Source: a virus. From it: a stretch of 33,662 bases of DNA. A program made the translations under genes and the position numbers. The stretch lies in IMG/VR virus record IMGVR_UViG_3300044564_000025. One strand, given 5' to 3'. The notes beneath the pieces were generated by a model. The model was not told where the DNA came from. It did not search any database and saw only the letters and a program-made list of their open reading frames with translations. This document shows, one piece after another, positions 4,365-24,565 of the stretch; positions within the stretch are counted from its first letter, which is position 1; every line of letters begins with the position of its first letter.

Positions 4365-5252
4365 CTAGGCGGACGCCTTCTTGAGGACCGCGAAGCCCTT
4401 GGGGTCGAGAACGGCCCAGCTGTAGACGACCTCGGTGCGGTAGGCGATCTGGTTCAGGCGCTTGAGGTCGCCCAGGCCGTCGGGGTCGCCGGTCTCGATC
4501 ACGTCGAGGCCGAGGTCGCGGACGATGCCCCACTTGATGAGGCCGAACTGGCCGAGGATGGCCAGGACGTTGGTCGCGGTCTTGGCGAGGGAGCCGCTGA
4601 CGGTTCCGGAGGTCGCGGCGGCGATACCGTCGAGGTTGCCGACCTGCAGGTTCAGCGGGATCTCCGGGTAGAGGCGCGCGCCGGTGCTCTTGACGCGGAT
4701 CTTGCGGAGCTCGTTGGCCCAGGTCTTCGAGAGCGCGATGCCGTCGATGTCGTAGGACTCGTTCACGGCCGCGACGAGGCTGTCGAGGTCGGCGGAGGCG
4801 TCGGTGGTGGCGGTCACGGAGTTCGCGCCCGCGGTGAGCGCCGTCATGCCGGACGCGGCGGTTCCGGTGGACGGGTTGATGGCGTGGTAGATGCCGTAGT
4901 CGAGCGCGCGGCCGACCGCCGCGGAGGATGCGTCCACGATGGCGTCGATGATGCCGATCTGGGAGTCCTCGTCGGCCCACTTGACCTCGTCGGACAGGCG
5001 CACGGTGACCTGCGCCTTGTGGATCTCGCCGGGGACGGGGGTGAACGCGGCCTCGGAGGCGGACTTCTGCGCGCCCTCGCCGACGAACTCGGCCTCGGGC
5101 TCCTTGGAGAAGAGCATGTGGGTCATGTCCTTGAAGAGCACGGGCGTGCTCGGGGACAGGGTCGCGATGGTGGAGGTGTCGCGCGCCTTGGTCACGACCT
5201 GCTGCGCGACCTCCTTGGGGAGGGTGATGTTCTTGGTCTCGATTGCTGCCAT
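4365..5252 (-). CDS. Major capsid protein (HK97 fold type)
   Basis: 295 aa, MAAIETKNITLPKEVAQQVVTKARDTSTIATLS...NQIAYRTEVVYSWAVLDPKGFAVLK; GAAAGG SD 7 nt upstream; follows the scaffold gene. Confidence 0.9.
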   Translation of the reverse strand: MAAIETKNITLPKEVAQQVVTKARDTSTIATLSPSTPVLFKDMTHMLFSKEPEAEFVGEGAQKSASEAAFTPVPGEIHKAQVTVRLSDEVKWADEDSQIGIIDAIVDASSAAVGRALDYGIYHAINPSTGTAASGMTALTAGANSVTATTDASADLDSLVAAVNESYDIDGIALSKTWANELRKIRVKSTGARLYPEIPLNLQVGNLDGIAAATSGTVSGSLAKTATNVLAILGQFGLIKWGIVRDLGLDVIETGDPDGLGDLKRLNQIAYRTEVVYSWAVLDPKGFAVLKKASA

Positions 5253-5282
5253 TCGTCAGCCTTTCTCTTGGTGTTGCGTCCT

Positions 5283-5729
5283 CTAGGAGCCGAAGATCTC
5301 GCGTGCCAGGCGCGCCTTCGCGGCTGAGACGCCGTCGTCGGAGCCGCCCTTGGTGTCGAAGCGCCCGGAGTGGCCGTGCGCGCCGGACTTGGGCTTCGCG
5401 TACTCTGCCACGGCCTTGGCGTTGGCCTCCATCTCGTCCTCGGTCGCACCGAAGACGAGCGACTCGGGCACTCCGGCCGACTTGGCGACGCGACGTCGGA
5501 CCTCGTCGAGCTCCGCCTTGGCCTTGTAGCCGTCGAGCTCGGCCTTTGCCTTCTCGGCGGCCTCCCTCGCCTTCTGGAGCTCGGACTTGGACTCCTCCTG
5601 GAGCTCGTCGTAGGCCTTTGCCTTCTCGGCGTTCTCCTTGGAGCGCTGCTCCCACTTTCGGGCCATCGCCTTCCAGTCGGTCCCCTCGGCGCCCTCGTCC
5701 GGTCCCTTCTCCTCTGGCTCGTCTGCCAT
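5283..5729 (-). CDS. Capsid scaffolding protein
   Basis: MADEPEEKGPDEGAEGTDWK...ELQEESKSELQKAREAAEKAKAELDGYKAKAELDE...; charged coiled-coil-like 148 aa. ATG 5729 is preceded by GGAGGGAG. The upstream part of track ORF 5283..5870 was trimmed. Confidence 0.75.
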   Translation of the reverse strand: MADEPEEKGPDEGAEGTDWKAMARKWEQRSKENAEKAKAYDELQEESKSELQKAREAAEKAKAELDGYKAKAELDEVRRRVAKSAGVPESLVFGATEDEMEANAKAVAEYAKPKSGAHGHSGRFDTKGGSDDGVSAAKARLAREIFGS

Positions 5730-5744
5730 CTCTGGCTCCCTCCT

Positions 5745-5873
5745 GTCCCGTGCGGGACGGCCTCGGGCCGTGCGGCCCACGTTTATATGGCAGGAGGCCC
5801 CGTGCGGGGCCTCCGTGCTTGCGAAGTGTTTTGGCATGGGAAGGGCCGCATCCTCTCGGGTGCGGCCCATGCC
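5745..5873 (-). other. Cluster of four GC-rich stem-loops; three share a 4-nt loop GTGC (GCAC in the minus-strand RNA)
   Basis: gtccc-gtgc-gggac (5745-5758), gggcc-gtgc-ggccc (5765-5778), ggaggcccc-gtgc-ggggcctcc (5793-5814), and ggcatggg..gggccgca-N10-tgcggccc-atgcc (5833-5873). All lie in the 177-nt gap between ORF 5907..6302 and the scaffold gene. Confidence 0.6.
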
Positions 5874-5906
5874 GTCGTCGTTCTGTTTGCTTGCGTGCCG
5901 CGTGCG

Positions 5907-6302
5907 TCACATATCCGGGATGAAGCCCATCACGTAGCGCTTGACGATCTCCTCGGAGACCTCCTTGAGGAGCGGGTACGGCACGTCGATTCCGGCCGCG
6001 TCGAGCGTCCTCGACACGAGCGCCCACACGCGGTCGTTCTCGATTAGCCTGAAGAACTCGCGTCCCTCTTGCGTCAGGCCCGATATCTCTCCTCCGAGGC
6101 AGATTCCGCTTCCGTCCTGGAACTCTAGCGTGCTCTCGATGAGTCCGTCTGACTTGAGCCTCGCGAGCTCGCGCTTGAGCATAGCTTCGTCCCTGACGCT
6201 GATGAAGTCGCCGTAGCTCGTCGGGCCGTCGTTCGCGGAGATTATCGCGAGGACGGCTCGCATAGTGTCGTAGTCCCTTGGCATTTCAAATCTCTCAACC
6301 AT
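5907..6302 (-). CDS. Winged-helix protein, DUF2513/YjcQ-like; second gene downstream of the MuF C-terminal module
   Basis: MVERFEMPRDYDTMRAVLAIISANDGPTSYGDF...LKSDGLIESTLEF...GLTQEGREFFRLIENDRVWALV. The ATG at 6302 overlaps the upstream TGA (TGATG). Lower-GC DNA. The 5' extension of track ORF 5907..6410 was trimmed. Confidence 0.6.
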   Translation of the reverse strand: MVERFEMPRDYDTMRAVLAIISANDGPTSYGDFISVRDEAMLKRELARLKSDGLIESTLEFQDGSGICLGGEISGLTQEGREFFRLIENDRVWALVSRTLDAAGIDVPYPLLKEVSEEIVKRYVMGFIPDM

Positions 6303-6631
6303 CAGTCGAGTATTATCGGAGTCGCCACCCCATCGCGGTCTTCCCAGATGATCGTTTGGTACCACTTGTCTCCGAATTCTGGGTCCTTCAAATCGGCTTC
6401 TGACTTCCATTCCTTCTCGAAACGCTCTGCTTCGCTCTCAGGAACTATCCAGCCATATAGGCCTATCAGGTGCTGACCGGCTATGTTGAATGTGTCCCCA
6501 TCTGAGGTGTCGAAGAAGAACCGCTCGCCTCTTTGTCTGCAGAACCGGTTCATAGCTTTCACTGACCTTATCTCGTCCTTATAGACGAGATCATTTGTGT
6601 ACCGAATTCCAGACGGAAGTGAGCTCTCCAT
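6302..6631 (-). CDS. Small protein immediately downstream of the MuF C-terminal module (candidate immunity protein)
   Basis: 109 aa, acidic, Trp-rich (…FFFDTSDGDTFNIAGQHLIGLYGWIVPESEAERFEKEW…). ATG 6631 follows a GGGGGAG run and overlaps the MuF gene 3' end by 41 nt. An alternative ATG is at 6553. No family recognised. Confidence 0.5.
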   Translation of the reverse strand: MESSLPSGIRYTNDLVYKDEIRSVKAMNRFCRQRGERFFFDTSDGDTFNIAGQHLIGLYGWIVPESEAERFEKEWKSEADLKDPEFGDKWYQTIIWEDRDGVATPIILD

Positions 6632-7781
6632 TTCTCCCCCTCTCGAATCTCATGGCAGACACGATGTTCTTCGTACTTGCATTCACAATGACAACTATAT
6701 CATCCTTGAAATAGTAAAGGCAGAGCTTGTCACCTTGCCCGTACCAGTCTCCATACGCCAGCGCGTCGCAGTTATCTATAACATCATTTGCGATTTTCGA
6801 ATACCTGTCGCGGTCCTTCTTCTTCGACGGATCTATCCCGAACTCTGGTCCGTGTTTTCTTACGTGATGACCGAATCCCTTTCCCGTCCATTTAAGGTCG
6901 GAGCTCGCGAACGGAGATCCTGCCGTTCCGTTCAGTTCTATCCCGGTCGCTATCTCTTTCTCGGCCTCTGTGTACACGGTGCCGTTATGGTGCTTCGCGT
7001 TTCTAACCTTGTAAGGGGTCCACGCGAATTGGCCTTTTCCCTTGTACAGCCAGTCACTGTCCATTCCACCCATCTCGCGGGTGAGGGCGTCCATCTGTTT
7101 GCGGTCCTCGCCGAACCTTAGCCCGGTGTGGTCCTCGATGACGCCCATGCGACGCCTCATGCCGTCCGGGTCGTACCCGCTGATCTTGGTTACGCCCTTG
7201 ACGCCAGGGACGACGATGCAGTCGCACCCGTCATGGGAAGCGGCGCCTGCCGACTGCTCGCTCCTGTAGTCGAAGTCGCGTGACGCGAGCATGTAGCACC
7301 AGGAGCACGTCTCGCGTCCCGTGGGGACGCGAGCGTACCTGACGTCGTTCCTGCTGCAGTTCCTCGCCATGTTCTGCATGGCGGACCTGTGCACGTAATA
7401 TGAGGCGAGGTCTGCGCTTGTGCCCTCGTAGCCCTCCCAGTCCGGTTCATCGCCCGCTATGGCGCGGACGTAGTACCTGACCTTCTCCTCCATCTTGTCA
7501 TCGTCGATGAGGCCGTCGAAGATCTGGGCTGGGTCCGCCCCTAGCCCCTCGGCCTCGCTTATCTCGTCGAATAGCTCGGCCGACAGCGCCTGGGCCTGGT
7601 CACCGAAGACTCCGAGGCAGTCATGTATGATGCCGATCGTCTTGTCGCGCACGTCCGCGACGGGCATCTCCCTGATTCCGGGCTCTGACTCGAGGCGCGC
7701 GATGACGTAGGACTTCGCGTCAGCCTGCTGCTGCGCCAGTTGGAGTCGATACCTTGTCAGCTCCGCCTGCGTTATCTGCAA
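6591..7781 (-). CDS. MuF/SPP1-gp7-type minor head protein fused to an unassigned C-terminal domain (about residues 240-396)
   Basis: The N-terminal part carries ...VRYARVPTGRETCSWCYMLASRDF...ASHDGCDCIVVPG (MuF hallmark) and follows the portal gene. The TTG start at 7781 overlaps the portal 3' end by 62 nt, so the start is uncertain. The C-terminal part is encoded in lower-GC DNA. Confidence 0.85.
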   Translation of the reverse strand: MQITQAELTRYRLQLAQQQADAKSYVIARLESEPGIREMPVADVRDKTIGIIHDCLGVFGDQAQALSAELFDEISEAEGLGADPAQIFDGLIDDDKMEEKVRYYVRAIAGDEPDWEGYEGTSADLASYYVHRSAMQNMARNCSRNDVRYARVPTGRETCSWCYMLASRDFDYRSEQSAGAASHDGCDCIVVPGVKGVTKISGYDPDGMRRRMGVIEDHTGLRFGEDRKQMDALTREMGGMDSDWLYKGKGQFAWTPYKVRNAKHHNGTVYTEAEKEIATGIELNGTAGSPFASSDLKWTGKGFGHHVRKHGPEFGIDPSKKKDRDRYSKIANDVIDNCDALAYGDWYGQGDKLCLYYFKDDIVVIVNASTKNIVSAMRFERGRNGELTSVWNSVHK

Positions 7782-9204
7782 CCGGCGTCACCTGCCTGTT
7801 CCTGTCGAGTATCGCCTGCGCACCGGCGAGCGCCTGGCTCCTGCGCCTGTCGCTCCTGAGCTGCGCGATCTGCTCGTCGTCGTAGCCGAGCTCGCGGAGC
7901 GTCACGTCGGAGTCGGCGAGCCACGGGATGGCGCTCACCTGTTTGACCATGGCGTCGGACTGCGAGACCACGGACGGCATGGACGGGTTGCGGAAGTGCA
8001 CGGAGATGGTGCCGAGCTCCTGTGCCGCCTGGCCGTAGGAGACGTTCTCGTGGGCCGCCCACGCCATGCGGCAGAGCGACTGCGTGGACTGCTTCCAGCC
8101 GTCCACGTAGTGCTGGATGTCGACGACCGCGTCCTCCTTGGAGGCGTAGATGGCCTCGGCGGAGCTCGGGTTGTCGCTCACCACGCCGAGGGACGAGAGC
8201 GGCACGCCCGTGGAGCCCGAGAACTGGGACGCGAGCGAGCGCATGTAGTCCACGTGTGGCTGCATCGAGCCCTGGGCGAGCTGCCCGAACTGGGGCGTCT
8301 GGCCGTCCCTGGCGGGCGTCGCCGCGAAGATCGAGCCGATGTAGGCGCCGAACGGCGAGCTCTTGATCGCCTCCATCGCCTTGGGCGAGGCGTTCATGAG
8401 GAACTTCTGCGGGGCCGCGGCGAACGCGGCCGCGACGGTCATGTTGAGCATCTCGCGCTGGGCGTCGTCCACGTAGTTCATGACGGAGCGCGTGATGCGC
8501 GAGCGGCCGAACGGGTTGTCGAGCGTCGGGTGGTAGGCGACGTGCACCATGGGCGCGCGGCCCATCGAGTGCGGCGCGTACTCGGCCGACCAGCCGTCCG
8601 GGCCGTGCCTGAGCGTGATGACGCTCTCGTCCGTGAGCACGTCGACCACCGAGGGCCGGCGCACGTGGCTGTTGCGCAGGCGCTCCGTGGCCACGACGAC
8701 CATGCCGGCCGTGATGCGCCTGAGCTCCTGCGACCAGACGGCGCTCGCCGCCGTGGCCGGGTAGCCCGAGATCACGACGGGCTGCTCGCCCCTCTCGGTG
8801 TCGCCGAGCGTCACGGCCATGAAGGCGCACGCGTGGCGCAGCGACGCCGAGGCGGTCAGGTGGACGAGCTGCTTCATGGAGTTGCCGTCGAGGATGGCGC
8901 CGAGATCGTCCTCGGTGCCGTCCGCGGCGCCGGAGAGCGTGACGCCCTCGTACTGGACGCGGTCCGCCCACCAGTCCACGCACTTCGCGGCCCAGTCCAC
9001 GCGGGGGTCGAGCTTGCGCACGAGCTCCTTCTGGACGCTGATGCCGATGTCCTTCACGCGCACGTGGCCGCGGTAGTAGTCGTCGCGCAGGCGGTTCCTG
9101 GCGTAGTGCTCCCTCCACGTGTCGACGAGCCTCGCGACTGTGGCCGCGTCCTCGGGGTCGAGACCCTTGGCGCGGGCGACCTCCTGTCCGAGAGTGAGAC
9201 TCAA
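7720..9204 (-). CDS. Portal protein
   Basis: 494 aa, directly after TerL. The TTG start overlaps the TerL stop (TTGA). The sequence ...DDYYRGHVRVKDIGISV...PQKFLMNASP... resembles SPP1-type portals. Confidence 0.9.
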   Translation of the reverse strand: MSLTLGQEVARAKGLDPEDAATVARLVDTWREHYARNRLRDDYYRGHVRVKDIGISVQKELVRKLDPRVDWAAKCVDWWADRVQYEGVTLSGAADGTEDDLGAILDGNSMKQLVHLTASASLRHACAFMAVTLGDTERGEQPVVISGYPATAASAVWSQELRRITAGMVVVATERLRNSHVRRPSVVDVLTDESVITLRHGPDGWSAEYAPHSMGRAPMVHVAYHPTLDNPFGRSRITRSVMNYVDDAQREMLNMTVAAAFAAAPQKFLMNASPKAMEAIKSSPFGAYIGSIFAATPARDGQTPQFGQLAQGSMQPHVDYMRSLASQFSGSTGVPLSSLGVVSDNPSSAEAIYASKEDAVVDIQHYVDGWKQSTQSLCRMAWAAHENVSYGQAAQELGTISVHFRNPSMPSVVSQSDAMVKQVSAIPWLADSDVTLRELGYDDEQIAQLRSDRRRSQALAGAQAILDRNRQVTPVADNAGGADKVSTPTGAAAG

Positions 9205-10793
9205 AAGAACACCTCCATGTCATCGTCGGGACCTGCCGCCCCGGCCGTCCTCTGCGCGGCCCAGTGCGCTATGGCCGCTGCCTCCGCCGCGGTGGGGCTG
9301 TCGCCGCCGAAGCCCCAGCCGCCCATGCTACCGATGCGGCGGCGCGTGACGGTGAGCACGCTCTCCGTGAGCATGTCGGGGACCTCCCTGCCCTCATCGT
9401 CCGTGGCGCCGTCCGAGTACCACTCGAGCGTGCGCTCACGCACGGCGTCCAGGAACGACTGGGCGTACTCGGTGACCTCGCCAGTCCTGACGAGGTGCAC
9501 GTCCTGCGGCTCGCGCGGCCACTGGTCGAGATCCGGGTGCTCCGTCGCGCGCTCGATGCGGGCGCGCTCGGCGAGCGTCTTGGCGCCCGACTTGCCGTCG
9601 ACGGCCCACGCGGCGCCCGTCGCGTCCGATGCGATCGCGTGGACGAGGCCCGAGATGCCGTGCGTTGTCGGTCCGCAGCTCACGAGCTCGACGTGTATGT
9701 GGCCGTCTTCGAGCCTCACGGCCACGGCGACGGCGACCGTCCCTCCGTCCGGCGAGAACTTGACTCCGAACGCCGACGGGTCGCCGGACGGGGCCGCGTG
9801 AGACGCGCACGCCGCCCACTCGCCCCTTGAGACGAGAGCGTCGTGGCGCGCCGCGTCGTACCAGTAGCCCAGGTACTCCTGGGCGAAGCCGAAGGCGTCG
9901 AGCCTGCGGCGCCCGACCCTGATGGCGCGTATGTCGGCCACGCCGGAGGCGAGCGCGGGGTGGACCCTCATCCACCTCTGCTCGTCGTCCACGTCGCCGA
10001 CCTCGCCCACGCCCCACTCCCACCAGCACGTGTCAGGCGCCTTCCTGAGGGCGTCGGCGCGGAGCTCGCGGAAGCTCGTCCCGTGCGATCCCGGGCGCGT
10101 GGGCGTCCCGAGGTATACGAACTGCAGGTCGTGGAGCGCTCCCGACGTCGTGGTCGGGATGATCACCTGCTCCTGCTCGCTCGTGAGCTCCTGCGCCTCG
10201 TCGTACACGACGAGGTCGAAGGTGTAGCCGAGCGAGGCCGACTTCGTTCGCGTTGAGAAGTGGATGCTGCCCTCCGGGGCGCCCTCGTATGGGGCCTCGA
10301 AGAAGAACGACTCCTGGGCGGTCTTGGCCGACACGCCGCGGAGCCTCGCGTTTATCGCCGGGTAGCGCGCAGCGGGGTCCCTCGGCTTGGTGCCGAAGAT
10401 CGTGCGGAAGCGCCGGTACATCTCCGACGTGGTCGAGTAGTTGTGGTCGGTCCAGAGGACGGTGGCGCCCTCGGCGAGCGCGCGGTACGCGGCCCAGATG
10501 ATGCCGACGATTGACTTGCCGCACTGGCGCGGGATGGAGCCGCCGATCACCGGGTTCGCGTAGTGCGAGCCGTCCTCGGAGCGCCCTCCCATGTCCATGA
10601 GCATGGCGCGCTGCCACTCCTGGCACGGGTAGCCCATCATGGCGCCGAGCTCCGCCGCGGCCGCGCCGCGCGAGCCGGCCTCGTCGTACGGCATCGAGAG
10701 GTGGACGTTTGGCGGGAGGTACCTAGAGCCTGAGGACCTCCGCGAGCCCTCCGCCTCCGCCATAAGCCGCTCGAGCCTGCTTGCCACCGCCAT
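9201..10793 (-). CDS. terL: Terminase large subunit
   Basis: Walker A-like GGSIPRQCGKS and Walker B-like FDLVVYDEAQE, about 530 aa. The start is uncertain: ATG 10793 overlaps TerS by 71 nt, with alternatives at 10763 and 10694. Confidence 0.9.
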   Translation of the reverse strand: MAVASRLERLMAEAEGSRRSSGSRYLPPNVHLSMPYDEAGSRGAAAAELGAMMGYPCQEWQRAMLMDMGGRSEDGSHYANPVIGGSIPRQCGKSIVGIIWAAYRALAEGATVLWTDHNYSTTSEMYRRFRTIFGTKPRDPAARYPAINARLRGVSAKTAQESFFFEAPYEGAPEGSIHFSTRTKSASLGYTFDLVVYDEAQELTSEQEQVIIPTTTSGALHDLQFVYLGTPTRPGSHGTSFRELRADALRKAPDTCWWEWGVGEVGDVDDEQRWMRVHPALASGVADIRAIRVGRRRLDAFGFAQEYLGYWYDAARHDALVSRGEWAACASHAAPSGDPSAFGVKFSPDGGTVAVAVAVRLEDGHIHVELVSCGPTTHGISGLVHAIASDATGAAWAVDGKSGAKTLAERARIERATEHPDLDQWPREPQDVHLVRTGEVTEYAQSFLDAVRERTLEWYSDGATDDEGREVPDMLTESVLTVTRRRIGSMGGWGFGGDSPTAAEAAAIAHWAAQRTAGAAGPDDDMEVFF

Positions 10794-11181
10794 CGAGCGC
10801 GATCATCTCCTGTATGGTCTTTCGGTACTCGGGGGCGAGCCGCGCCACGTCGGCCGGCGCCGCGCCCTGCATCGAGTCCCATATGAGGTCCCGCAGGCCC
10901 GCGAGGCGCTGGTGGTCGGTCATGGCCGTCCCGATGGAATCGCGGCCCTGGCGGGCGTCCACGATGTGCATCAAACTGCCGACCTTGGGCCTCTCGTCCA
11001 TCGGGGCCTTCGGCTCATCGGCCGAGTCGTCGCGGAGGTGCATGTCGAGTATCTTCTTGTAGACCCCGCTCCTGCTCCTCCCGAGGTGGGAGGCCATTTC
11101 CTCGGTGGTCTTGGTCTCCCAGTTGGCCCGGATGTAGTCGAGCTCGCGCTGCGTGTAGCGTTTCGCGAAAGTCATGTCCAT
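10723..11181 (-). CDS. terS: Terminase small subunit (HTH-containing)
   Basis: MDMTFAKRYTQRELDYIRANWETKTTEEMASHLGRSRSGVYKKI...; GGAGG lies upstream of ATG 11181 (second ATG at 11175). It is immediately upstream of TerL. Confidence 0.7.
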   Translation of the reverse strand: MDMTFAKRYTQRELDYIRANWETKTTEEMASHLGRSRSGVYKKILDMHLRDDSADEPKAPMDERPKVGSLMHIVDARQGRDSIGTAMTDHQRLAGLRDLIWDSMQGAAPADVARLAPEYRKTIQEMIALDGGGKQARAAYGGGGGLAEVLRL

Positions 11182-18619: not shown

Positions 18620-19801
18620 TCAGTCCTCCCCGTTCCCCAAGATCTCGTCGAACCTCGCCGCGGCCTGCCGGTCGCGTCCGGGCATCACGTGCCCGTAGTA
18701 CCTGAGCGTCGTCGCCACGTCCGCGTGGCCCAGGCGCTCGCTCACCGTCTTCGCGTCCACGCCCGAGGCGATGAGCAGCGTCGCGTGCGTGTGCCGCAGC
18801 GTGTGGAAGCGCACCCACTTCGGCAGCCGCAGCGCCCTGGCCCGCCTGCCGAACCATCCGCTCAGGTCGTTCGGTCGCATGAAGTTGCCGTTCGTGCTGA
18901 CCATCGGCATGTTCGACGCCTTGCCCCAGCGCTCGCCCGACCACGCGAGGTGCCTGCGGATGCCGTCCGCCACCTCGGCTGAGAGCGCCACGCGGCGCAT
19001 GCCTCCGGTCTTGGTGCCGTCGTGCCGCTCGCGGGAGGCGTCCACGGTGCCGCGCACCATGAGGGTTGGCTCCTCCCCGTCGAGGAAGTCGGCGCGGCGC
19101 ATGGCGCAGACCTCGCCCACGCGGAGCCCGGTGTTGAGCGCGACCCACGAACCGAAGGCGCACACCCTGTCGCGCACGCGCCTGACCGTCGAGACGTCCG
19201 CGAATCCCTCGCGCAGCAGCGTGTCGTTGAGCGCCCTGGCCTGGATCTCGTCGAGCGCCTTGGGCCTCCTCTCGGTGCCTCCCTTGGGCAGCCTCACCCC
19301 GCGCACGGGGTTCCCGTCCGTCACGCCGAGGGCGCGCATGCGGTCCCAGAAGCCCGAGAGGAACGCCTTCTCGAGGTCGACGGTCGCCCTCGCATAGGTG
19401 GACGAGAGCGACGCGAGCAGCTCGTCGACGTCGGCGGCGGACACGTCGTCGATGCCGGACGGTGCCAGCGGCGCCGCGAGCTCGGCGCACCGCGCGTAGG
19501 CGCTCAGGGTGTTGGCCTTGGTCCCAGCCTTGCGCATGCGGCCGAGGTACGCCCGCATGAGCTCGCCCACCGTGGCATCGTCGGCCAGCTTGCGCGCCGC
19601 GTACTGGCGCCTGACCCACGCCTCGGCCTCGCCCCTGGCGTCCTCGACGGGAGTGCCAGCCGGGAAGCTGAGCTGCGGGCGCACCGCGCGCCCGGTCACC
19701 TTGCTCGTGCCGAGGTACAGGCGCACCACGAGCCTGCCGTCATCCTCGCGCACGAGCCTCGCATTGTGCGGCAGAGTCGCCACGACGTTCGACCCGCCCA
19801 T
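18620..19801 (-). CDS. Tyrosine recombinase (phage-integrase family), second copy, in the early operon
   Basis: ...NTGLRVGEVCAM..., ...FHTLRHTHATLL..., ...LGHADVATTLRYYGHV (R, HxxR, H, Y), plus a SAM-like N-terminal core-binding region. ATG 19801 has GGGGG 9 nt upstream. Confidence 0.9.
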   Translation of the reverse strand: MGGSNVVATLPHNARLVREDDGRLVVRLYLGTSKVTGRAVRPQLSFPAGTPVEDARGEAEAWVRRQYAARKLADDATVGELMRAYLGRMRKAGTKANTLSAYARCAELAAPLAPSGIDDVSAADVDELLASLSSTYARATVDLEKAFLSGFWDRMRALGVTDGNPVRGVRLPKGGTERRPKALDEIQARALNDTLLREGFADVSTVRRVRDRVCAFGSWVALNTGLRVGEVCAMRRADFLDGEEPTLMVRGTVDASRERHDGTKTGGMRRVALSAEVADGIRRHLAWSGERWGKASNMPMVSTNGNFMRPNDLSGWFGRRARALRLPKWVRFHTLRHTHATLLIASGVDAKTVSERLGHADVATTLRYYGHVMPGRDRQAAARFDEILGNGED

Positions 19802-19805
19802 CACA

Positions 19806-23512: not shown

Positions 23513-24565
23513 CTACCTCTTGAGGTACACGCTGCCGCCCTTGCTGACGGCCACGTAGCGCTTCTTTCCGGAGCTCGCGCCGGTGTAACGTCCCCAGACG
23601 CAGCCGTCCGCGGTCGTGCTCCAGCCATCCAGGGTCACCTGCTGGCCCTTATGGTACTTGGCCACGACGGAAGAGCCCGTGGCGGGCGCGGAGCGGACGT
23701 TGAGCGTGGCCACCTGGCAGGTGTATCTCCCGGCGGGCAGGGATGCCGCCGCCGGCTTGGCAGCGGCCCTTGCGGGCGACGCCGCGGCGCCTGCCTTGCG
23801 CAGGTAATCCATGCCGCCGGTCGTGCGCACGGCCACCCAGCGAAGCTTGCCCGAGCCGCCCGTGTATCGGCCCCAGACGCAGCCGCCAGCGGTGACGGCG
23901 GTGCCGTCCAGCACGACGGTCTCGCCCTTATGGTATTGCGCGACCACCGAGTAGCCCGTGCCAGCACCCGAGCGCACGTTGAGCGCGGAGACCACGCACT
24001 GGTAGGTGCCTGCGGGCACCGAGGTGCTGACGGTGGCGTCGTGGACGGGAGTGGCCGTCTGTGCGGCCTTGGGCTGTCCGCCGACGTAGCGGTAGGCCCA
24101 CGTCCAGCGGCCCGCGTCGAGTGCGCTGTACGCGCTCTCCCACCCGGTCTGGTCGCCCTTGGTGCCCGAGATCGTCTTGTGCTCGCTGATTCGGAAGCCG
24201 GCCTGCATGAGCCTGCCGCCAACGCTGATGACCATCTCCGTGTGGCCCGATCGCAGGAGGACGTCGCCGACCTGCAGCGACCCCAGCCCGACGCCGGCGA
24301 AGCCGTGCTGCTTGAGTAAGGTGGCCTCGTTTCCCGTCCACATGTAGCAGCCGCGCGGCAGCACGCCAGCCGCGACGTAGCACATGCGGACGGCCTCGGA
24401 GCAGTCGTAGTCCCCGCCATGCACCGTGGTGACGGTGCCGTCCGACAGCCTGATGCTCTCGATCGTCCCGTCGCCCCTGCGGGCTGGTTGCGAGTAGCCG
24501 TGCGCGCTGTGGGTCACGAGGTGGTACATGATCTCCGCCGCACGCGCGTTGTAGGTGAGTGCCAT
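23513..24565 (-). CDS. Endolysin: Cys/His peptidoglycan hydrolase domain plus two SH3b-like wall-binding repeats
   Basis: N-terminal ...HGYSQPARRGDG...GGDYDCSEAVRMCY...RSGHTEMV... Two C-terminal repeats match the pattern Y.C.V..LNVRS....G..VVA.YHKG..V.LDG......GCVWGRYTG. Confidence 0.85.
   Translation of the reverse strand: MALTYNARAAEIMYHLVTHSAHGYSQPARRGDGTIESIRLSDGTVTTVHGGDYDCSEAVRMCYVAAGVLPRGCYMWTGNEATLLKQHGFAGVGLGSLQVGDVLLRSGHTEMVISVGGRLMQAGFRISEHKTISGTKGDQTGWESAYSALDAGRWTWAYRYVGGQPKAAQTATPVHDATVSTSVPAGTYQCVVSALNVRSGAGTGYSVVAQYHKGETVVLDGTAVTAGGCVWGRYTGGSGKLRWVAVRTTGGMDYLRKAGAAASPARAAAKPAAASLPAGRYTCQVATLNVRSAPATGSSVVAKYHKGQQVTLDGWSTTADGCVWGRYTGASSGKKRYVAVSKGGSVYLKR

Follow-up and report, generated by a model that had tools for sequence, protein, structure and literature searches.

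The question raised by this locus is what kind of domain forms the C-terminus of the 396-aa protein translated from the minus-strand ORF 6591..7781 of the window (i.e., the whole 33,662-nt stretch of DNA that was analysed). A sequence-only reading had left this domain unassigned, and considered a nuclease-type toxin plausible given its G-H-H-V-R-K-H-G motif. Translation reproduces residues 240-396 as quoted there, with residue 240 at about 7063, and places the motif at aa 304-311, encoded at 6849-6872, in agreement with that reading. The analysis presented here indicates that aa ~291-396 most probably form a colicin D-like, metal-independent RNase of the BECR fold, carried by the MuF-type minor head protein of a temperate actinobacterial siphophage and accompanied by a probable partner antidote, i.e., a predicted MuF polymorphic toxin.

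The N-terminal part of the protein was assigned from a Pfam match of aa 3-212 to VG15 (PF25310, E=7.8e-40). In addition, tblastn retrieved genes labeled 'MuF-like minor capsid protein' from Rothia and Gordonia phage records, at 28-33% identity. The portal gene is located directly upstream, and the terminase large subunit is also encoded in this region. The linker that follows the MuF-type domain is also present in the homologue P0022, and the GC content starts dropping within it, while the extension that follows the linker is common only to the closest toxin homologues, P0001-P0003. The coordinates of all features are presented in Table 1.

Table 1. Features of the locus, with coordinates in the window, strand and basis of assignment.
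Feature	Coordinates	Strand	Basis
Terminase large subunit gene	9201..10793		
Portal gene	7720..9204		
MuF-type minor head protein domain, N-terminal, aa 1-212, with CxxC...CxC motif	7146..7781	-	Pfam VG15
Linker, aa 213-254, conserved, still MuF scaffold; cassette junction at its end	7020..7145	-	95% identity to L001
Toxin-cassette N-terminal extension, aa 255-290	6912..7019	-	69% identity to L001
Predicted colicin D-like (Tox-ColD, BECR fold) RNase domain, aa 291-396 (stop codon 6591-6593)	6594..6911	-	Profile, AF2 model and Foldseek
Predicted active-site helix segment, G304-H305-H306-V-R-K309-H310-G-P-E313	6843..6872	-	Alignment to colicin D
Codons of H310; H306; E313	6852-6854; 6864-6866; 6843-6845	-	Inside active-site helix segment
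S375-A-M-R378, last beta-strand; counterpart of colicin D S677-x-x-K680 ([TS]xxK)	6648..6659	-	Alignment and model strand E82-88
Candidate immunity gene, 109 aa; shares 41 nt with the 3' end of the toxin gene	6302..6631	-	Synteny in 8/8 loci
Third gene, 131 aa, DUF2513/YjcQ-like winged-helix protein, TGATG start-stop coupled to the immunity gene	5907..6302	-	Pfam and PHROGs
Tyrosine integrase gene	18620..19804		Phage_integrase domain, E=2.2e-20

Standard databases provided no label for the C-terminal domain, so its description as unassigned by ordinary means was accurate. When the C-terminal 176 aa were used as a single-sequence query, zero Pfam matches were obtained at E<=10 (Colicin_D included), nothing was found in NCBIfam or PADLOC and nothing meaningful in PHROGs, and both phmmer against PDB sequences and tblastn against the 50,697 phage records of INPHARED gave nothing or noise only. 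A word-indexed search of 5.8 billion proteins also returned zero matches, although it missed the 396-aa protein itself, which is recorded in a Logan contig. Megablast of positions 5000-11000 against phages yielded zero matches, and searching with a three-sequence alignment yielded zero related loci in 185,579 GTDB species genomes and one sister contig in IMG/VR.

The exhaustive phmmer/HMMER search resulted in 183 homologue clusters. The domain is C-terminal in all of them, mostly on MuF-type minor head proteins, with N-termini that Pfam assigns to Phage_Mu_F (31), VG15 (30) and Phage_min_cap2 (21); one homologue is named 'colicin D domain-containing protein' by NCBI. Pfam Colicin_D is weakly matched (E<0.01) by 19 of 150 homologues, and five of ten individually scanned homologues match it with 16-22 bits against a gathering cutoff of 25; the clade lies below the curated threshold of this model. 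PBECR2 is matched by 6/150 homologues (best E 1.9e-4) and PBECR3 by 3/150, all more weakly than Colicin_D, and the 396-aa protein itself presents no match to the Pfam PBECR1-5 models. Comparing a profile of 50 homologues, with the sequence of the 396-aa protein first, against PDB sequences yielded E=3.1e-8 for the colicin D chains 1v74_A and 1tfo_A and 5.7e-7 for 5znm_A, over about 80 residues. The next-best PDB sequence had E=0.62, and nothing else was significant.

The AF2 model of the predicted RNase domain presents a pLDDT of 95 and the order alpha-alpha-beta4-alpha, with helices H10-24 and H31-47, strands E50-54, E64-69, E72-77 and E82-88, and helix H95-105. The N-terminal helices on a four-stranded antiparallel sheet that characterize the BECR fold are thus found in the model. 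In a Foldseek comparison against the PDB, ranks 1-5 are all colicin D, with probabilities of 0.98-0.99, TM values of 0.57-0.62 and weak E-values (0.017-0.04), followed by RelE, CdiA-CT NC101 and colicin E5; the best viral structure match of the model is a 'minor capsid protein' (TM 0.73). Taken together, profile and model establish that the domain is homologous to the tRNase domain of colicin D and matches it in fold, at the level of sequence and predicted structure. The profile match, the top five fold matches and the Colicin_D matches among homologues support the earlier suggestion of a nuclease-type polymorphic-toxin domain. The accompanying suggestion that the domain could be a new family finds no support at the fold or superfamily level, though the clade falls under the Pfam threshold.

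Colicin D cleaves tRNA-Arg between positions 38 and 39, and its residues K607 and K608 are reported to be essential. The alignment with colicin D pairs H305 with K607, H306 with K608, K309 with K610, H310 with H611, E313 with D614, S375 with S677, and R378 with K680. His611 is the general base in colicin D (PMC9990079), and the published Tox-ColD signature consists of [KH]K, Hxx[ED], [ST] and [TS]xxK, with MuF among the listed trafficking modes (PMC3482391). Two elements of this signature are present, namely Hxx[ED] (H310-G-P-E313) and the [ST] within a [TS]xxK-type segment (S375-A-M-R378), and the [KH]K dibasic position corresponds to H305-H306.

A residue census was performed over 135 homologous domains, ten of which constitute the near clade. 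Position 310 is His in 135/135, position 313 is acidic in 131, position 375 is S/T in 132, and position 378 is K/R in 117. Position 306 is Lys in 125 and His in nine, all nine within the near clade, whose tenth member has Arg. Lys occupies position 305 in 111 domains, and the near clade is variable there (A, R, K, D, G, S, W). In this alignment the predicted catalytic His, the acidic residue and the beta4 Ser are conserved, and the positions of Lys607, Lys608, Lys610 and Lys680 hold basic residues. Across the aligned domains, the residues of the His cluster are not conserved together, H310 being the only invariant one. Loss of the cluster in close homologues, which the sequence-only reading would have counted against a nuclease, was found in part, for H305, and not for H306 or H310. 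As a counterpoint to the conserved positions, those of K607 and K608 are His/His in the window, the former is unconserved in the near clade, and the sister phage L001 has the motif F-A-R-H-V-R-E-H, in which the K309 equivalent is Glu.

All eight loci examined (seven besides the window) have a homologous gene of 82-112 aa directly downstream of the toxin, and in seven of these loci it shares 32-41 nt with the 3' end of the toxin gene. The partner of L004 is an ORF taken from the ORF listing, uncalled as a gene, which begins just past the toxin stop. The eight loci include stand-alone toxin-partner two-gene modules in Firmicutes chromosomes. The toxin-partner pair of L005 is outside any phage head operon and adjoins cotJ and catalase genes, and L003 contains an orphan partner gene but only a remnant of a toxin. 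Partner residues F38, F39, G60, W61, F71, W90 and W96 are invariant, the partner motifs are FFxD..G.G, GW[LI][VI]P and F...W, and comparison of the partner gene with that of L001 presents a dN/dS of 0.17 at a dS of 0.93. On this comparative evidence, the 109-aa partner is likely an immunity protein. An 83-aa start (ATG at 6553) was dropped in favor of the 109-aa start at 6631, which is preferred because, apart from L004, every locus has a partner whose start falls within the 3' end of the toxin gene, because the N-terminal segment can be aligned between clades (G[IL]R.T), and because dN/dS is about 0.1 over codons 15-26.

Three partner sequences matched zero Pfam families at E<=10, and the partner profile retrieved no ImmD chain of 1V74/1TFO from the PDB sequences, the best match being spectrin with E=0.24. 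The comparison with Imm64 was made through its published motif 'DxEA, R' (PMC3482391), which is not evident in the partner alignment. As far as could be tested by these comparisons, the partner differs from both ImmD and Imm64, the immunity families listed for Tox-ColD. The AF2 model of the partner, built from a two-sequence alignment, is of poor quality (pLDDT 57), and no meaning attaches to its fold matches. A promoter scan found no minus-strand sigma-70-like site for the partner inside the toxin gene that could drive it independently, although such a scan carries little weight where the host is a high-GC actinobacterium. We tentatively propose that the near clade of high-GC actinophages, with its near-fixed H306 in the place of Lys608 and close to H310, might employ a two-histidine acid-base mechanism and/or have a tRNA target other than that of colicin D, and that the conserved partner might constitute an immunity family not described before, dedicated to the ColD-like clade as a whole, which is large and mostly unannotated.

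The third gene matches Pfam DUF2513 with E=3e-5, which is below threshold, and phrog_585 with 1.6e-6. Its counterpart in L001 is 92% identical, Logan contig L002 includes it as a 131-aa gene call, and a YjcQ-family gene takes its position in L012 (pairwise E=5e-5), while it is absent from L011, L004 and L009. By this distribution, the third gene appears as an optional accessory.

In comparison with L001, the 396-aa protein presents 95-96% identity over aa 1-254 and 69-75% beyond. The dS values are 0.08-0.17 for the portal and MuF N-terminus, 0.17 for aa 1-254, about 1.2 for aa 255-290, from at least 0.9 to saturated for the toxin C-terminus and immunity gene, and 0.28 for the third gene. The dN/dS is 0.07-0.17 wherever computable; there is no value for toxin aa 291-382 because dS is saturated. 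In 4/4 near-clade loci, this region has a GC content of about 50% (toxin C-terminus plus immunity gene) against 63-70% in its flanks, and that of the phage is ~67%. These values indicate that the toxin C-terminus and immunity gene constitute a cassette, exchanged by recombination relative to the sister phage. The homologue P0022 presents 66% identity as far as about aa 262; similarity ends at about aa 262-269 and is followed by an unrelated JAB-like C-terminus. The comparison points to a conserved N-terminal scaffold with variable C-terminal domains. Given the integrase (Table 1), and with tail and endolysin genes found elsewhere in the window, gene content indicates that the phage is temperate.

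The sequence-only reading had offered two kinds of nuclease fold. The BECR RNase of colicin D/E5 type is the one recovered, while an HNH/EndoVII-fold DNase of the GHH, AHH, SHH or WHH clades is now extremely improbable. Only the letters G-H-H speak for such a DNase, yet H305 of this 'GHH' is unconserved, and the motif is located in an alpha-helix of a confident alpha/beta BECR-fold model rather than in a beta-beta-alpha-metal finger. No HNH structure was recovered, nor any HNH-type Pfam family in the 396-aa protein or in 150 homologues, and among PDB sequences the profile is significant for colicin D only. A head-decoration or structural domain was also considered and rejected: the searches turned up no structural family, and the presence of the partner gene speaks against such a reading. 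It is also unlikely that the domain has lost its activity and persists as a BECR relic that binds RNA or DNA and contributes to head structure or packaging, which has been suggested for phage Mu gp30. The C-terminal BECR domain of phage Mu's own MuF protein has been proposed to be inactive (PMC5512222), hence a BECR domain need not be a toxin when it is carried by a MuF protein, and the substitutions at the K607, K608 and K309 positions described above would suit a relic. However, near-universal retention of the catalytic His, the acidic residue and the Ser/Thr (135, 131 and 132 of 135) goes against this, as does the dedicated, co-diverging partner under purifying selection, which is hard to explain for a harmless domain. 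Moreover, head genes are nearly identical between the sister phages, yet the toxin module was swapped.

A further possibility, held with limited confidence, is that the domain is an active BECR RNase serving as a phage-injected, PBECR-type effector that aids infection, e.g., through cleavage of host RNAs involved in defence or regulation, or through early shut-off of host translation, with the partner only silencing it during assembly. An injected-effector role has been proposed for PBECR domains that occur as fusions with MuF and portal proteins (PMC5512222), and the weak PBECR2 and PBECR3 matches among the homologues, the location of the gene in the late head operon and the outcome of the promoter scan are in line with this proposal. 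Nevertheless, the stand-alone L005 module and the orphan L003 partner with its toxin remnant are both typical of toxin-immunity cassettes. This alternative differs from a MuF polymorphic toxin in purpose only, the chemistry being the same.

For the MuF polymorphic toxin, the following course may be envisaged. A few copies would enter the procapsid via the MuF domain beside the portal, and would be ejected together with the phage DNA. The RNase domain would then cut tRNA anticodon loops, stalling translation in partner-less cells, while the 109-aa partner would bind and block the RNase in the producing cell and in lysogens.

In comparison with known systems, the closest is the colicin D tRNase (Tox-ColD; PF11429; PDB 1V74, 1TFO, 1TFK and 5ZNM), which has the same fold, with the catalytic-His helix followed by a four-stranded antiparallel sheet. 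Colicin D likewise has a C-terminal killing module beside a gene for a small neutralising protein, both of which are predicted here by analogy. The differences are that Foldseek identity is about 12-16% and the 396-aa protein is invisible to the Pfam model; Lys607/Lys608 of colicin D are His/His in the phage domain; and the phage domain has an extra C-terminal helix (ERGRN..LT.IW.S) where colicin D has its tail. Delivery would be by the phage capsid instead of by translocation domains, and the partner is not ImmD.

With the MuF polymorphic toxins (PMC3482391, PMC5576092), the locus shares the MuF-type N-terminus, the variable C-terminal toxin and the small downstream ORF (<150 aa), as well as a gene that adjoins the portal and a temperate genome with an integrase. 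The N-terminus here, however, is of the VG15 (actinophage) MuF type. MuF toxins are mostly found in Firmicutes (Jamet et al. 2017, PMC5576092), and the phyletic list of Tox-ColD, for which ImmD and Imm64 are given as immunity families, does not include Actinobacteria (Zhang et al. 2012, PMC3482391). PBECR domains (Iyer et al. 2017, PMC5512222) are matched weakly by 9/150 homologues (PBECR2/3) versus 19/150 for Colicin_D, both the solved structures and the profile indicate colicin D itself, and PBECR proteins are not described with a dedicated immunity partner. The domain is best explained as a divergent toxin of the colicin D type, of a phage-borne kind already known and not conceptually new.

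These results replace a former 'unknown C-terminal domain' with a testable prediction, i.e., a temperate actinobacterial phage with a capsid-borne colicin D-type tRNase and an adjacent antidote gene. They also reveal an annotation gap, given that at least 183 protein clusters, mostly phage minor head proteins, lie under the Colicin_D threshold, and that the partner family has no database model. The function of MuF toxins is poorly understood, and the cassette-swapped sister phage would provide a convenient system for studying their possible roles in superinfection, lysogeny or competition.

The last ~176 residues of the MuF-toxin protein find no usable match in Pfam, NCBIfam, PHROGs, PADLOC, PDB sequences, a word-indexed protein search or phage genomes, hence the sequence-only reading was fair in calling the C-terminal domain unassigned. 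Its quoted C-terminal sequence is also exact, with G304-H305-H306-V-R-K309-H310-G311 encoded at 6849-6872. Searched exhaustively with HMMER, 1.84 billion cluster representatives yielded 183 homologue clusters at E<=1e-3, and the toxin match is C-terminal in 150 of the 150 homologues listed from these clusters. The homology core spans window residues ~292-378, beginning right at the motif. When the 150 full-length homologues were scanned with Pfam, their N-termini matched Phage_Mu_F (31), VG15 (30) and Phage_min_cap2 (21), three flavours of MuF/SPP1-gp7 minor head protein, and their C-termini matched Colicin_D (19, best E 1.1e-6), PBECR2 (6) and PBECR3 (3), all of which are BECR-fold RNases. 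NCBI calls one of the homologues a "colicin D domain-containing protein".

A profile of 50 domain sequences, headed by the window sequence, was searched against all PDB sequences. The colicin D tRNase domain is the sole match (1v74_A and 1tfo_A, E=3.1e-8; 1tfk_A, 2.1e-7; 5znm_A, 5.7e-7), the next best having E=0.62. The AlphaFold2 model built from this alignment (mean pLDDT 95, pTM 0.87) predicts the order helix, helix, four strands, helix. Foldseek places colicin D chains at PDB ranks 1-5 (probability 0.98-0.99, TM 0.57-0.62 over 97-99 columns), while other BECR members, namely RelE, CdiA-CT of E. coli NC101 and colicin E5, appear at lower ranks (6, 9-11, 47), mixed with unrelated folds. Among predicted viral structures, the best match is a 514-aa "minor capsid protein" (TM 0.73, E=6e-6). 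By family and modelled fold, the toxin domain is identified as a colicin D-like BECR-fold RNase, one of two options raised beforehand and the one borne out by the only significant profile match and the top five folds. The other, a nuclease of the GHH/AHH/SHH/WHH groups of HNH/EndoVII fold, is rejected: no such family was recovered in any search, and the motif lies in the first helix of the model, not in a beta-beta-alpha-metal finger.

Active site residues were mapped by adding the colicin D sequence to a 135-member alignment, in agreement with the HMMER alignment.

Window residues mapped onto colicin D, with their composition among the 135 aligned members
Window	Colicin D	Composition
H305	K607	K in 111/135; A/R/K/D/G/S/W in near clade (closest homologues)
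H306	K608	K in 125/135; H in 9, all near clade
K309	K610	K 115, R 12, E 7
H310	H611	H in 135/135
E313	D614	acidic in 131/135
S375	S677	S/T in 132/135
R378	K680	K/R in 117/135

Zhang et al. give the Tox-ColD signature as "[KH]K, Hxx[ED], [ST], [TS]xxK", with K607, K608, H611, D614 and S677 essential in colicin D (PMC3482391), and His611 is considered the general base (PMC9990079). Given this signature and the mapping, the window protein retains the catalytic His as well as the Ser and the acidic residue, and its lysine positions hold side chains that are basic or ionisable. The His cluster noted beforehand is upheld only in part: H310 is the predicted catalytic residue, H306 is a clade-specific substitute for Lys608, and H305 lacks conservation (L001, the sister phage, reads F-A-R-H-V-R-E-H). 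Of the three, H305 would be the least informative mutation target.

The gene belongs to a head-morphogenesis block whose order is terminase large subunit, portal, MuF-toxin gene, two small genes, scaffold-like gene and a 295-aa ORF.

Features of the window
Feature	Coordinates	Strand	Remark
terminase large subunit	9201..10793	-	head-morphogenesis block
SPP1-type portal	7720..9204	-	Pfam SPP1_portal
MuF-toxin protein, 396 aa	6591..7781	-	ORF
partner gene, 109 aa	6302..6631	-	ORF, starts 41 nt ahead of toxin stop codon
ORF3, 131 aa	5907..6302	-	weak DUF2513/phrog_585 match
scaffold-like gene	5283..5870	-	head-morphogenesis block
295-aa ORF	4365..5252	-	where major capsid gene would be expected by position
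tyrosine integrase	18620..19804		
endolysin with SH3 domains	23513..24565		
tail endopeptidase	29916..31454		

Residues 3-212 match Pfam VG15 (E=7.8e-40); relatives of this region are annotated "MuF-like minor capsid protein" in Rothia/Gordonia phage records, whereas those from Arthrobacter, Propionibacterium and Bifidobacterium records are labelled either head maturation protease or hypothetical protein. The ORF starts with TTG at 7781 and overlaps the portal gene end by 62 nt (7720-7781). This overlap is probably real, since start and length are called identically in Logan contig L002 and conserved in L001 and in the close homologue P0001. The genome is siphophage-like with 67% GC, and its integrase marks it as temperate. 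The window appears to be a complete contig, its 33,662 nt equalling the longest contig given in the cluster table. It contains no tRNA genes, and nothing closely related turned up in 50,697 phage records (terminase <=34% identical). A high-GC actinobacterium is the probable host.

The partner has no match in Pfam, NCBIfam, PHROG, PADLOC or PDB, and the word-indexed search returned only one further cluster. A homologous 82-112-aa gene nevertheless occupies the same position in every toxin locus retrieved (8/8), sharing 32-41 nt with the 3' end of the toxin gene in seven; in the eighth, L004, the partner comes from the ORF listing, uncalled as a gene, and starts just past the toxin stop. The loci include L001, the near-clade toxins P0001 (L011) and P0003 (L012), and the Firmicutes-type L004 (MuF, toxin, partner, scaffold) and L006 and L009 (portal, toxin, partner). 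In L005, a toxin of 102 aa stands alone with its partner, amid cotJ, catalase and phosphatase genes and outside any phage context. The aligned partners are 59% down to 22% identical to that of the window, with F38, F39, G60, W61, F71, W90 and W96 invariant. The partner profile has no ImmD match among PDB sequences, which include ImmD chains, and the Imm64 motif (DxEA, R; Zhang et al., PMC3482391), compared as published, is not apparent in the alignment. Given the conserved synteny, and on that basis rather than on function, the partner is likely the cognate immunity protein.

Logan contig L003 (SRR33279952, 1-640) carries an orphan partner copy, P0152, 64-65% identical, preceded by only the last ~16 toxin codons (..KGRNAKLTSIWDSVHG). 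The DNA further upstream is unrelated and repeats itself locally. Such an arrangement is commonly seen where toxin-immunity cassettes have been displaced, and the copy seems to be an immunity module that was displaced or orphaned. Directly after the toxin stop, within the immunity ORF, lies an 8-bp stem hairpin (ATCTCGTC-TATAAG-GACGAGAT, minus strand, 6570-6591). The stem is kept in L001 (4763-4784), except that one base pair near its outer end has changed from T-A to C-G. The hairpin may influence how translation is coupled or how stable the mRNA is.

ORF3 is joined to the immunity gene by a TGATG stop-start overlap and probably encodes a winged-helix protein, with a possible role in regulation or as a second protective factor. 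Its 5' part has low GC and raised divergence, as in the cassette. In L012 the gene that takes the place of ORF3 next to the toxin-immunity pair is of the YjcQ family and weakly similar to ORF3 (pairwise E=5e-5); no ORF3-like gene follows the pair in L011, L004 or L009. The scaffold-like ORF has an internal ATG at 5729 (MADEPEEKG...), with AGGAGGGAG just before it, and probably starts there rather than at 5870, which would leave a ~175-nt intergenic stretch after ORF3 (5730-5906). This contains several GC-rich hairpins, e.g., GGGCCGCA-N10-TGCGGCCC at about 5845-5870 and a stem at 5765-5778, possible terminator or processing sites that would separate the cassette from the scaffold gene.

Between ~7020 and ~6300 GC is 47-50%, down from about 70%, and a similar contrast (~50% vs 63-70%) exists in L001, L011 and L012. 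In comparison with L001, whose portal is 99.4% identical in amino acids, synonymous divergence (Nei-Gojobori dS) is 0.078 for the portal, 0.17 for MuF aa 1-254, 1.2 for aa 255-290, saturated for toxin aa 291-382, 0.93 for the immunity gene and 0.28 for ORF3, with dN/dS of 0.07-0.17 wherever computable (i.e., excluding the saturated toxin segment). These values indicate anciently diverged, predicted functional toxin-immunity modules on near-identical head genes, and hence recombinational replacement instead of local decay. P0022, a 451-aa homologue, shares the VG15/MuF scaffold and linker up to aa ~262 (66% identity), followed by an unrelated ~190-aa C-terminus with a weak Prok-JAB match (E=0.0016), which may be a further cassette, for a toxin or an effector, joined at the same point. 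Given where the similarity ends, the junction falls at about nt 7000-7020, and the different C-terminus makes the MuF scaffold polymorphic in the usual sense.

The catalytic residues and partner gene are conserved, the module behaves as a cassette, and it sits in the head operon. By analogy with SPP1 gp7/MuF proteins and colicin D (PMC5512222, PMC5576092, PMC3482391, PMC9990079), the MuF domain would let a small number of copies enter the procapsid at the portal site, the protein would exit together with the DNA, and the RNase domain would cut tRNA anticodon loops independently of metal, stalling translation unless the partner is present. That the RNase domain is instead an injected effector seems less likely: this would fit the late-operon position of the gene and a scan that detected no internal promoter, which is weak evidence in a high-GC host, but the stand-alone (L005) and orphan (L003) modules favour a toxin-immunity module, the reading we prefer. 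The biological purpose of the RNase may be to kill or handicap competitors that lack immunity, to bias lysogeny, or to disable RNA-based defences of the host.

MuF-fused Tox-ColD proteins are already in the list of Zhang et al. 2012 (PMC3482391); the survey of temperate-phage MuF toxins by Jamet et al. 2017 (PMC5576092), mainly in Firmicutes, does not mention colicin D. The window example is a divergent actinophage member. Its domain is invisible to the Pfam Colicin_D model, whose matches are below gathering score in the ten homologues scanned individually. Unlike colicin D, it has His at the Lys607 and Lys608 positions, a predicted additional C-terminal helix and a partner from an unannotated family. 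These divergences leave the kind of system unchanged. The practical value lies in the annotation gap: at least 183 clusters, and a partner family that has no database model.
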